Source: Escherichia coli
GTDB taxonomy: Bacteria > Pseudomonadota > Gammaproteobacteria > Enterobacterales > Enterobacteriaceae
Assembly: GCF_003334385.1 (NCBI RefSeq)
Contig: NZ_QOWN01000121.1
Direction: 5' to 3' (one strand)
DNA length: 1,207 bases
The position numbers and the translations under genes are program-made. Under the pieces are notes generated by a model. The model worked only from the letters and a program-made list of their open reading frames with translations. It did not search any database and was not told the DNA's origin. Of the stretch, positions 1 to 1,207 are shown in pieces. Position 1 is the stretch's first letter. Each line of letters starts with the position of its first letter.

Positions 1-313
1 CGCTCAAGCAACAGCGCATTCTGGCGCATGATCCGGTAAACACGTTTGGCATTGATCGCAGGCATACCATCAAGTTCTGCCTGTCTGCGAAGCAGCGCCC
101 ATACCCGACGATAACCATACGTGGGCAGCTCTCCGATAACATGGTGTATACGGAGAAGCACATCCGTATCATCAGTGTGACGACTGCGGCGGCCATCCAT
201 CCAGTCATCGGTTCGTCTGAGAATGACGTGCAACTGCGCACGCGACACCCGGAGACAACGGCTGACTAAGCTTACTCCCCATCCCCGGGCAATAAGGGCG
301 CGTGCGCTATCCA
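1..313 (-). CDS. insD: IS2 OrfB (InsD), DDE transposase catalytic part, N-terminal ~104 codons only; 3' end truncated by the window edge
   Basis: Manual translation of the reverse complement of 1-313 from the GTG at 313-311 gives (V/M)[103 protein letters not shown], recognised as the InsD N-terminus. It is in the -1 frame relative to orfA and overlaps its 3' end. It is absent from the ORF track because it has no ATG and no stop inside the window. Confidence 0.85.
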
Positions 314-637
314 CTTTTTTGCCCGTCCATATTCAACGGCTTCTTTGAGGAGTTCATTTTCCATCGTTTTCTTGCCGAGCAGGCGCTGGAGTTCTTTAAT
401 CTGCTTCATGGCGGCAGCAAGTTCAGAGGCAGGAACAACCTGTTCTCCGGCGGCGACAGCAGTAAGACTTCCTTCCTGGTATTGCTTACACCAGAGAAAT
501 AACTGGCTGGCTGCTACACCATGTTGCCGGGCAACGAGGGAGACCGTCATCCCCGGTTCAAAGCTCTGCTGAACAATTGCGATCTTTTCCTGTGTGGTAC
601 GCCGTCTGCGTTTCTCCGGCCCTAAGACATCAATCAT
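272..637 (-). CDS. insC: IS2 OrfA (InsC), the small helix-turn-helix DNA-binding / regulatory transposase subunit, 121 aa
   Basis: The supplied ORF 272..682(-) contains [49 protein letters not shown]...[15 protein letters not shown], recognised as IS2 InsC. I place the start at the ATG at 637-635 (residue 16 of the track ORF), which has the GGAG ribosome-binding site upstream. The track's longer N-terminus begins at a GTG inside the IRL and is unlikely to be real. Stop is TAA at 274-272. Confidence 0.9.
314..320 (-). other. Programmed -1 ribosomal frameshift slippery heptamer A AAA AAG, joining orfA to orfB to make the OrfAB transposase
   Basis: The minus strand reads GGGCAAAAAAGTGGATAGCGCAC. 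In the orfA frame this is GCA AAA AAG TGG. After a -1 slip the reading continues AAA AAA GTG GAT AGC..., giving [15 protein letters not shown]..., which matches the InsD N-terminus. A6G frameshift sites are the established mechanism in IS3-family elements. Confidence 0.7.
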
Positions 638-642
638 CTGTT

Positions 643-646
643 CTCC
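643..646 (-). promoter_or_regulatory. Shine-Dalgarno (GGAG) for IS2 orfA
   Basis: The minus strand reads CATTGGAGAACAGATG: GGAG followed by a 5-nt spacer and the orfA ATG at 637-635. Confidence 0.5.
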
Positions 647-676
647 AATGACTAGTCTAAAAACTAGTATTAAGAC

Positions 677-696
677 TATCACTTATTTAAGTGATA
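677..696. repeat. 9-2-9 palindrome TATCACTTA-tt-TAAGTGATA straddling the inner edge of the IS2 IRL
   Basis: Seen directly: 677-685 TATCACTTA, 686-687 TT, 688-696 TAAGTGATA, a perfect reverse complement. It lies between the terminus and the orfA start, where the IS2 promoter/operator is reported. Its function is inferred, not shown. Confidence 0.6.
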
Positions 697-728
697 CTGG
701 TTGTCTGGAGATTCAGGGGGCCAGTCTA
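688..728 (-). repeat. IS2 left terminal inverted repeat (IRL, ~41 bp); element terminus at position 728
   Basis: The minus-strand sequence starting at 728 is TAGACTGGCCCCCTGAATCTCCAGACAACCA..., the characteristic IS2 terminus. The exact inner boundary is taken from the published ~41-bp IRL length, not measured here because the right end is absent. Confidence 0.75.
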
Positions 729-913
729 GTCAGTGATCTACAGCCTGTTGAATAAAACCCCGGATGCTTCCCCCGATTCTGCAAGTAATACTTCGGTTAT
801 TTGCACTATTTTATCCCTGTTGAATTTGGTTAAGCCGGTGCAGACGCGCCGGGAAACGCACACCTGAACCGGCACAATAAAATACAATACAACCCCCTGT
901 TACTGGAGAAATG

Positions 914-945
914 TAAGCGTCAACGGAGCACCGTATTGACGCTTA
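914..945. repeat. Perfect palindrome / hairpin (10-bp arms TAAGCGTCAA / TTGACGCTTA, 12-nt loop) at the IS66-like terminus, overlapping the transposase stop codon
   Basis: Seen directly: 914-923 TAAGCGTCAA and 936-945 TTGACGCTTA are exact reverse complements. The loop CGGAGCACCGTA can form an extra 3-bp stem (CGG/CCG). On the plus strand it is followed by TTTATT (946-951), so it resembles an intrinsic terminator in that orientation. Confidence 0.6.
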
Positions 946-1128
946 TTTATTGGTGAGTACTACGTTCCATGGCAGGAGTTCGTCAACTCGGTTGGAAGGC
1001 CATTCCGGCAGTACGCTCAGGATATGGCGCAGATACGCTTCCGGATCGATACCGTTCAGACGGCAGGTGCCGATCAGCCCGTACAACAGTGCTCCACGCT
1101 CGCCGCCGTGATCGCTGCCAAAGAACAT
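943..1128 (-). pseudogene. IS66-family transposase (TnpC-like), C-terminal 61-codon fragment
   Basis: ORF 943..1128(-) translates to MFFGSDHGGERGALLYGLIGTCRLNGIDPEAYLRHILSVLPEWPSNRVDELLPWNVVLTNK. This matches the conserved IS66 transposase C-terminus pattern (WLFAGSD.GGERAA..YSLIGTCKLNG.DPEAYL...ELLPWN). Full-length proteins are ~500 aa, so about 90% is missing. The frame immediately upstream is closed by stop codons. Confidence 0.6.
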
Positions 1129-1180
1129 AAAGATGGTATGACCTTTATATACTCACTATAGCATTGGTGGGATATTCCAG

Positions 1181-1186
1181 AGGAGG
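1181..1186 (+). promoter_or_regulatory. Strong Shine-Dalgarno AGGAGG, 5 nt upstream of the ATG at 1192
   Basis: Positions 1181-1194 read AGGAGGTCATTATG: a consensus ribosome-binding site with optimal spacing to an ATG. Confidence 0.4.
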
Positions 1187-1191
1187 TCATT

Positions 1192-1207
1192 ATGCATTCG
1201 GAAAATA
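1192..1207 (+). CDS. 5' end of an unidentified ORF (M-H-S-E-N...), running off the window 3' edge
   Basis: ATG at 1192-1194 preceded by AGGAGG, then CAT TCG GAA AAT. Only 5 codons are visible, so no product can be assigned. The call rests entirely on the translation-initiation context. Confidence 0.25.

Follow-up and report, generated by a model that had tools for sequence, protein, structure and literature searches.

A hairpin and U-rich tract at the tnpC-proximal end of the insertion sequence ISEc23, and its standing as a candidate inward-facing terminator

The left end of IS200 carries a bidirectional Rho-independent terminator (nt 12 to 34) that was tested experimentally and protects the element against impinging transcription (PMC4513863). 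The right end of the insertion sequence ISEc23, one copy of which lies in the stretch of Escherichia coli DNA analyzed here (hereafter the window, meaning all 1,207 nt of it), resembles this arrangement in having, within its first ∼35 nt, a hairpin that faces incoming transcription, with a U tract behind it, and the IS200 terminator is the closest functional analogue of the ISEc23 motif. The two belong to unrelated families, IS200 having a Y1 transposase and no inverted repeats. Moreover, the IS200 terminator, located at the 5′ end next to the transposase gene, stops sense read-in, whereas the ISEc23 motif lies at the 3′ end of its operon and would block antisense read-in; the former was tested by experiment, and the latter is a predicted candidate. 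Measured against canonical E. coli Rho-independent terminators as modeled by TransTermHP (PMC1852404), the ISEc23 stem-loop is of ordinary size (<59 nt, with a loop within 3 to 13 nt), but it differs from them in its A-U-rich stem base, its bulge, its interrupted U tract and the lack of a gene ahead of it in the window. A perfect palindrome at the end of a mobile element also recalls the subterminal hairpins of IS200/IS605 and IS91-type elements. Those hairpins are bound as single-stranded DNA by HUH transposases and their pairing is kept across families, whereas the pairing in ISEc23 is not conserved; IS66 elements have a DDE-type transposase and inverted repeats. With the inverted repeats described for IS66 elements, ISEc23 shares the GTAAGCG tip, imperfect repeats of ∼24 bp, 8-bp duplications and the gene set tnpA-tnpB-tnpC, while a second, inverted copy of the tip just internal to the right repeat sets ISEc23 and a few other lineages apart. 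A literature search found no paper on the end structure of ISEc23 or IS66, on this hairpin or on a terminator at IS66 ends.

The window holds the following features (positions are counted from its first base; where no strand is given, the feature is not stranded):

1 to 727, minus strand: left part of IS2, with an insC-type ORF at 272 to 682 (minus strand) and the IS2 tip at 727.
728 to 912: non-IS flank between IS2 and ISEc23; the same flank adjoins an intact ISEc23 in E. coli GE3.
913 to 936: right terminal inverted repeat (IRR) of ISEc23, GTAAGCGTCAACGGAGCACCGTAT, with its tip at 913.
914 to 923: outer arm of the palindrome, TAAGCGTCAA, made up of the family-invariant tip TAAGCG and the lineage-specific TCAA.
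923 to 934, plus strand: apical part of the hairpin in the minimum free energy structures, a helix of 3 to 4 bp (CGG/CCG) with the loop AGCA.
931 to 941: right-end box, CCGTATTGACG (alignment columns 19 to 29).
936 to 945: inner arm of the palindrome, TTGACGCTTA.
943 to 945, minus strand: TnpC stop codon TAA; its distance to the tip, 33 nt, is shared by every relative whose end is 33 nt long.
946 to 951, plus strand: U tract (TTTATT) of a read-in transcript, which on the opposite strand reads AAT AAA (Asn-Lys), the two final codons of TnpC.
946 to 1132, minus strand: C-terminal part of ISEc23 TnpC (62 codons), severed by the insertion of ISEc45; matches NCBIfam NF033517.
1133 to 1207, plus strand: left end of ISEc45 (IS110 family), with the transposase start codon at 1192.

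The original prediction had placed the palindrome at the terminus of an IS66-like remnant, and it was right on both counts. Positions 913 to 1132 are 100% identical to nt 1 to 220 of ISEc23, and megablast against complete E. coli genomes matched 700 to 1132 at 100% to loci annotated as IS66-like element ISEc23 family transposase. Full-length ISEc23 TnpC scored 452 bits against the IS66 family transposase model NF033517 (cutoff, 180), which the 61-aa fragment in the window also matches. In the intact ISEc23 of E. coli GE3, the ends GTAAGCGTCAACGGAGCACCGTAT and GTAAGCGTAAACTGACCGCCGTAT form a 24-nt terminal inverted repeat (83% complementary) that starts with GTAA(GCG), and the RefSeq annotation gives the gene order tnpA-tnpB-tnpC, of which the window keeps the 3′ end of tnpC only. 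At one locus (L002) a 2,532-bp element lies between 8-bp direct repeats (TTATTTAC), and 8-bp direct repeats were also found around five further relatives (L062, GAACGAGA; L025, ACTTTGTC; L038, GTTAATTG; L019, TCTATGCA; L016, AATTAAAC); target duplication was scored on these intact relatives, the left end of the window copy falling outside the window. Because 8-bp direct repeats flank intact copies, position 913 is the first base of the element, abutted by flank bases 905 to 912 (GGAGAAAT). The GE3 copy next to the same flank has no duplication (GGAGAAAT versus GAAACTGC), which suggests a later rearrangement. All four defining features of the IS66 family are present, and we put the probability that 913 to 945 is the tnpC-proximal terminus of ISEc23, an IS66-family insertion sequence, at about 97%.

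Of the neighboring elements, IS2 was called from the features underlying the matches, which are annotated as IS3-like element IS2 family transposase, and in some other genomes only the part of the window from 728 onward is matched, consistent with an IS2 tip at 727. The whole stretch from 700 to 1207 occurred in no complete E. coli genome by megablast (best coverage, 85%), and the junction of truncated transposase and IS110-like element ISEc45 family transposase (1100 to 1207) was matched in 860 genomes. In E. coli 504838 and plasmid pSCU-107-1, ISEc23 resumes on the far side of ISEc45, so that ISEc45 represents a simple insertion after ISEc23 position 220 (window 1132/1133). The ISEc23 copy of the window is disabled by this later insertion into tnpC. 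The gene starting at 1192, toward which transcription had been proposed to be blocked, is therefore the transposase of the later-inserted ISEc45 and not a host gene.

Within the ISEc23 end, the outer arm of the palindrome is the element tip, and the inner arm consists of the TAA stop codon plus part of the right-end box CCGTATTGACG. Immediately internal to the 24-bp repeat, the inner arm is peculiar to the right end; in left ends its place is taken by GTAGCC or CTGGTCA. The ATTGACG part of the box is likewise confined to the right end. The site is certainly the right inverted repeat of ISEc23, the DNA substrate of TnpC, and the box is, by inference, probably the part of that end which the transposase recognizes. 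The other option of the original prediction, a transposase-binding element, is accordingly plausible where this inner box is concerned.

An inverted-repeat search recovered the perfect 10-bp stem that had been described: the arms at 914 to 923 (TAAGCGTCAA) and 936 to 945 (TTGACGCTTA) are 10 nt long and 100% complementary, with a 12-nt spacer. By our own calculation, 1.2 kb of random sequence would contain about 0.02 inverted repeats that pair perfectly over 10 bp and have arms 3 to 20 nt apart. Folding of 905 to 960 was strong on both strands, with −17.8 kcal/mol (z = −3.4) for plus-strand RNA and −17.0 kcal/mol (z = −4.8) for minus-strand RNA, none of 200 shuffles being as good in either case; as DNA, both strands folded at −12.7 kcal/mol (z = −5.4 and −6.3). 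The minimum free energy structures add a G913-U946 pair and an apical helix of 923 to 926 with 931 to 934. On the plus strand the stem is followed by TTTATT (946 to 951), and on the minus strand by C ATTTCTCC, which is flank DNA. The minus-strand ORF 943..1128 ends in TAA at 945-943, so the transposase stop codon does lie inside the stem as originally claimed. The three base pairs next to the U tract are A-U, and the hairpin contains a 2-nt bulge. A-U pairs beside the U tract and a bulge in the stem each lower the efficiency of a terminator. No covariance model of Rfam 15 matched either strand of the window at E values up to 1.

Terminator scores were obtained with our own re-implementation of TransTermHP, which uses the published parameters (PMC1852404) and is not the original program, at cutoffs of −2 for the hairpin and −2.5 for the tail. 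The plus-strand stem-loop at 914 to 945 (hairpin, −7.5; tail, −3.32) passed both cutoffs and ranked first among the candidates on both strands of the window. At 32 to 34 nt it has a size suited to an intrinsic terminator, and on the plus strand it is directly followed by a U-rich tract (UUUAUU). The tail on the minus strand scored −2.21 and failed the −2.5 cutoff, bearing out the claim that the sequence past the stem is U-rich on the plus strand only. A built-in simple terminator scan, whose loop limit is 8 nt, made no call at the site, and placed minus-strand terminator-like sites in the flank at 909-893 and 776-760. Random sequence of the same GC content yielded 18 equally good candidates per 2 Mb on one strand (∼9 per Mb). 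An equally good candidate also occurs inside the coding region of ISEc23, which means that the terminator score is not very specific. The predicted strength of the ISEc23 candidate is moderate, not outstanding, and we infer that the hairpin and UUUAUU have the geometry of a moderate Rho-independent terminator.

If the site works in this way, RNA polymerase entering from the right flank on the plus strand, antisense to tnpC, would transcribe the tip; the first 33 transcribed bases would fold into the −17.8 kcal/mol hairpin with UUUAUU directly after it; and part of the polymerases would be released at UUUAUU, ∼35 to 40 nt inside the element. Such partial termination would lower antisense transcription of tnpC and, in the window copy, also read-through toward ISEc45. 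The original prediction that the structure could block read-in from the IS2 side holds up in its orientation and in passing the cutoffs, but not in its source of transcription: a promoter scan found no promoter-like site anywhere in the window, the IS2 side included, and the IS2 gene is on the minus strand and points away. The same scan gave no support for an antisense promoter that would use the TTGACG of the inner arm. An identical hairpin followed by TTTATT is found in E. coli K-12 MG1655 (around 2,078,519 to 2,078,565 of U00096.3), where it sits behind cbeA-cbtA-yeeW, on the strand of these genes, at the right-hand border of prophage CP4-44. For the 3′-end mapping that had been suggested, one data set was consulted, the published K-12 tables (PMC7815308; Adams et al. 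2021), with coordinates mapped by an offset that was checked on the yeeX terminator. They list no plus-strand Term-seq 3′ end between 2,074,672 and 2,090,132, a weak negative that presumes the region to have been transcribed at the time. We give measurable termination in vivo at the ISEc23 right end roughly even odds, and consider it doubtful that the end has been selected for a terminator role. As a proposal, the terminator reading makes physical sense, has the right orientation and agrees with the family trend described below.

The palindrome was compared among relatives by reading the segments from the tnpC stop codon to the tip at 80 loci with TnpC relatives of 47 to 100% identity. What is conserved across these relatives is the tip GTAAGCG and the box CCGTATTGACG (931 to 941), the latter nearly invariant down to 53% TnpC identity, and in many lineages the distance from the stop codon to the tip is 33 nt. 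Beyond these two motifs, ISEc23 has a handful of additional matching bases. Over 21 distinct ends, and counting both the 10-bp stem and the apical helix, 67.4% of cells were paired versus 67.6% in column shuffles, with one double-sided change. This covariation test shows no evolutionary signature of selection for the ISEc23 stem, and the 21 ends do not form a conserved structured element of the IS66 family with compensatory changes. Because pairing equals that of the column shuffles, the partial complementarity is best seen as a product of two independently conserved motifs. A strong hairpin containing the tip was found only in ISEc23, the L098 variant, the L143 type, L025 and L027. In the ISKox1-like group (TnpC identity, 73 to 88%), the palindrome is absent, with two or more mismatches, and the TTTATT tail is present. 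The earlier suggestion of a palindrome conserved among the ends of IS66 elements has therefore to be given up, given pairing at the level of shuffles and absence both from the left end and from the ISKox1-like relatives; the palindrome is a trait of the ISEc23 lineage that is shared with few others.

These comparisons bear on a simpler account of the hairpin, in which the invariant tip GTAAGCG and the box CCGTATTGACG plus TAA are partly self-complementary by chance and have no RNA function. A few neutral substitutions specific to ISEc23 would then have perfected the match, and the end would act only as double-stranded DNA that TnpC recognizes and cuts, with termination too slight to matter. 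Family-wide pairing is what column composition predicts, and the alignment pairs that are invariant or nearly so (2-33, 6-29 and 7-28) stem from the tip, the stop codon and the box. All 33 bases of the end, including the loop, are identical beside TnpC genes of 82 to 100% identity, and identity of this kind beside diverged genes is a sign of gene conversion or of selection acting on the DNA sequence rather than on pairing. The hairpin and tail also occur independently of each other: the L143 type (TnpC identity, 87%) has an identical hairpin with arms of 11 bp that is followed by CCTGAT (tail score, −0.43), L025 and L027 (relatives at 55 to 57%) keep the hairpin without a U tail, and the ISKox1-like group has the tail without the palindrome. 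By this measure hairpin and tail are uncoupled, which counts against a selected terminator, and the lack of a listed Term-seq 3′ end at the K-12 copy fits the same account. Against it, at least some termination is to be expected on physical grounds from a hairpin of −17.8 kcal/mol with UUUAUU after it, and a by-product confined to a single lineage does not predict what was found among more distant IS66 ends. We regard a chance origin without RNA function as rather unlikely.

Those more distant ends were sampled as 24 diverged right ends, at most 85% alike, over the same segment from stop codon to tip. As a group they are more structured than their shuffles (mean z = −1.6; z below −2 at 8 of the 24), which counts against the chance account. 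Candidates on the read-in strand that pass both cutoffs are present at 11 of the 24 ends, 9 of them strong (hairpin score −5.8 or better), and 13 lineages have no inward-facing candidate; sense-strand candidates are present at two. From random windows of these loci, 2.5 ends with such a candidate would be expected, and 0.6 with a strong one. As a control, 264 long-ORF ends away from IS66 regions were scored, of which 17% had an antisense candidate and 7% a strong one (Fisher P = 0.002 and 1e-4, values that are optimistic in that the 24 ends are phylogenetically related). The scoring is also permissive. The enriched motifs belong to about five non-homologous hairpin types, of which the ISEc23 palindrome is one. 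The ISKox1-like group has a mini hairpin (GCCGTATTGACGGC) with the same tail as ISEc23, elements of Oxalobacteraceae have the hairpin CGCTGGGAAGCG with a U run that is noncoding in some, and L067 and L056 have the hairpins GGCTGGCCGCAGGCCAGC and CGCGAATCGCG, respectively. Other IS66 lineages have different hairpins in the same inward orientation, and this trend favors a generalized form of the idea of a read-in terminator. In that form, inward-facing intrinsic terminators would have arisen repeatedly among IS66 elements, each independently and from an unrelated hairpin, in the few dozen bases that separate the tnpC stop codon from the right tip, and would insulate the transposase operon from antisense read-in; the ISEc23 palindrome would be one version of them. 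We put this proposal forward tentatively and consider it unlikely as it stands.

The strand on which a structure acts may, however, be the other one. On the tnpC mRNA the hairpin spans from the stop codon to one base short of the IS tip, where it could form a barrier to 3′-to-5′ exonucleases or an occasional terminator and so give the transcript a stable 3′ end wherever the element lands. The sense fold is strong (−17.0 kcal/mol; z = −4.8), hairpins directly past the tnpC stop codon recur among lineages, and the L143 type, L025 and L027 keep theirs without an antisense U tail. The hairpin of the Oxalobacteraceae elements has its better pairing on the sense strand, where a G-U stands against A-C on the read-in strand, and it (CGCTTCCCAGCG) shows one compensatory pair (T-A to C-G) besides the G-U that forms on the sense strand only. 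The end of the L098 variant speaks in the opposite direction, as C921T keeps a G-U pair in plus-strand RNA only and leaves an A-C mismatch on the sense strand, and there is no covariation in the ISEc23-type stem. As a sense-strand terminator for tnpC the structure was rejected. The plus-strand tail lies within the element and does not vary, whereas that of the sense strand consists of UUAC and whatever the target site supplies; over 53 distinct ISEc23 insertion sites the sense tail passed −2.5 at 5 and never reached −3.3, and the target sites (n = 53) are AT-rich and symmetric in A and T. We consider a sense-strand 3′ stem-loop function to be distinctly unlikely.

A third account needs no RNA at all. 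The inverted copies of TAAGCGTCAA, 22 bp apart from center to center, could be a DNA-level dyad, either a binding site for dimeric TnpC or TnpA or a pseudo-end that tells right from left during synapsis. It would fit that the palindrome is confined to the right end, that its inner arm shares bases with the strongly conserved right-end box and that the whole 33 bp are identical beside diverged TnpC genes, and the mechanism of IS66 transposition has been described as insufficiently characterized (PMC12898284). However, close relatives that have transposed, as their 8-bp direct repeats attest (L062, L019, L016 and L038), do not have the palindrome, and the palindrome is therefore not required for IS66-type transposition. 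Independent movement of the palindrome was tested and rejected as well. At one locus (L095) it is followed by CCCTGAAG in place of TTTATT, which had prompted the idea of a mobile or solo 34-bp unit or of an excision footprint. Exact-match scans of viral and metagenome collections found the perfect 34-mer at five loci in three distinct contexts, and each of the five proved to be the right end of a related IS66 element, or a nested IS66 fragment, whose TnpC C terminus is different; none of the five is a solo 34-mer with target duplications. A role as a DNA-level dyad seems very unlikely to us. It and the two preceding alternatives, the chance by-product and the sense stem-loop, are not mutually exclusive.

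Overall, the site is the ordinary end of a common insertion sequence with a modest question attached. Should the hairpin not terminate transcription, it is merely an annotated end of that element. If it does terminate, every ISEc23 right end would be a portable one-way transcription stop, including the numerous orphan ends in E. coli genomes and plasmids and the one in K-12. Insertions would then alter the expression of their neighbors by allowing read-out and blocking read-in, and nested elements such as ISEc45 would be shielded from outside promoters. If the reading for the whole family is true, orphan ends such as that at the CP4-44 edge behind cbtA-yeeW in K-12 would be ready-made terminators for host and prophage operons. 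IS66 would in that event join the short list of insertion sequences that protect themselves against impinging transcription.

The box CCGTATTGACG (window 931-941; columns 19-29 of alignment A2, in which the right ends were compared) was nearly invariant at IS66 right ends, down to relatives with 53% TnpC identity, and its ATTGACG part was missing at the left ends of IS66 relatives. The box is probably an end-specific recognition site of the IS66 transposase; no description of it was found in the searchable literature. In itself, the box forms a small dyad, CGT-ATTG-ACG.

An IS66 element whose TnpC is 87% identical to that of ISEc23 shared the 33-bp end (L143 8234-8267; L144; L145 808-841; L095 13550-13583), with C rather than T at the equivalent of window 946, which gives perfect 11-bp arms, and with a TnpC C-terminus of …PSG versus …TNK in ISEc23. 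The end of this relative lies nested within another IS66 element at L145, and amid a nest of IS66 fragments inside a phage tail gene at L095. Ends were mosaic at locus L098 (1550-5714), where two tandem copies encode a TnpC 99.8% identical to that of ISEc23 but differ from it by three substitutions at the right end (GTAAGCGTTAACGGAGTGCCG…), and where the exact ISEc23 33-mer adjoins, on the same contig, a TnpC fragment that is only 82% identical. These mosaic ends suggest recombination or gene conversion between co-resident IS66 relatives. IS66 relatives from Oxalobacteraceae (L059, L053, L065, L071, L064 and L074) had a common hairpin around CGCTTCCCAGCG, immediately 3′ of the tnpC stop codon, with one compensatory pair (T-A in L059 versus C-G in both L053 and L065). 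One G-U pair of this hairpin is present on the sense strand only.

Terminator-like sequences were also found outside the terminal palindrome of ISEc23, at the following positions:

Window 760-776, minus strand: terminator-like site in the flank separating IS2 from ISEc23 (TCGGGGGAAGCATCCGG then GGTTTTATTC).
Window 893-909, minus strand: terminator-like site in the flank separating IS2 from ISEc23.
ISEc23 positions 1639-1671 (element at L002 196-2727), antisense: terminator-like motif within the coding region (ACTCATGACCGTTTTTATAATGCGGTCAGGAGT then TTTTTAC).

The two minus-strand sites (776-760 and 909-893 in the direction of reading) would halt read-out transcripts from ISEc23 heading to IS2. 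The internal antisense motif had better hairpin and tail scores (H = -9.9, T = -3.74) than the motif at the ISEc23 terminus.

ISEc45 (examined in window 1112-1207 and at L082 5000-5110 and 6440-6500) is an IS110-family element of about 1,445 bp, with about 250 nt of non-coding DNA downstream of its transposase gene; its right end (TGACAAAGGTCATAAGAG) is similar to the left flank of its target (TGCCAAAGAACATAAAG). It followed ISEc23 nucleotide 220, at one identical tnpC position, on plasmids as well as in 860 of the 5,426 complete genomes of E. coli. Insertion of ISEc45 into ISEc23 tnpC looks sequence-directed, like that of IS110/IS1111 elements with a guide RNA. The arrangement of IS2, flank, 220-bp ISEc23 end and ISEc45 (window 700-1207) was unbroken in no complete E. 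coli genome of the collection (best coverage, 85%). In E. coli strain GE3, the flank of the window is accompanied by an intact ISEc23, which lacks an 8-bp direct repeat (GGAGAAAT versus GAAACTGC), and by a shorter remnant of IS2. Because no complete E. coli genome of the collection holds the whole arrangement and GE3 differs in these respects, the locus is, on sequence comparison, one that has been rearranged more than once. Across 53 ISEc23 insertion sites (loci L001-L138), positions 2-6 of the 8-bp target, counted from the right tip, were AT-rich (about 68-81% A or T, the two being equally frequent), and G was frequent at position 10 (28 of 53).

E. coli K-12 MG1655 (L142 2501-2533; LR881938 2,062,012-2,062,044) retains an orphan right end of ISEc23, about 160 bp long, at the right-hand border of prophage CP4-44. 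This end lies some 260 nt downstream of yeeW and shares the strand of cbeA-cbtA-yeeW. Its hairpin and TTTATT are identical to those of the window copy, so the idea that the terminal hairpin acts as a terminator is open to direct testing in K-12, the standard strain for laboratory work.
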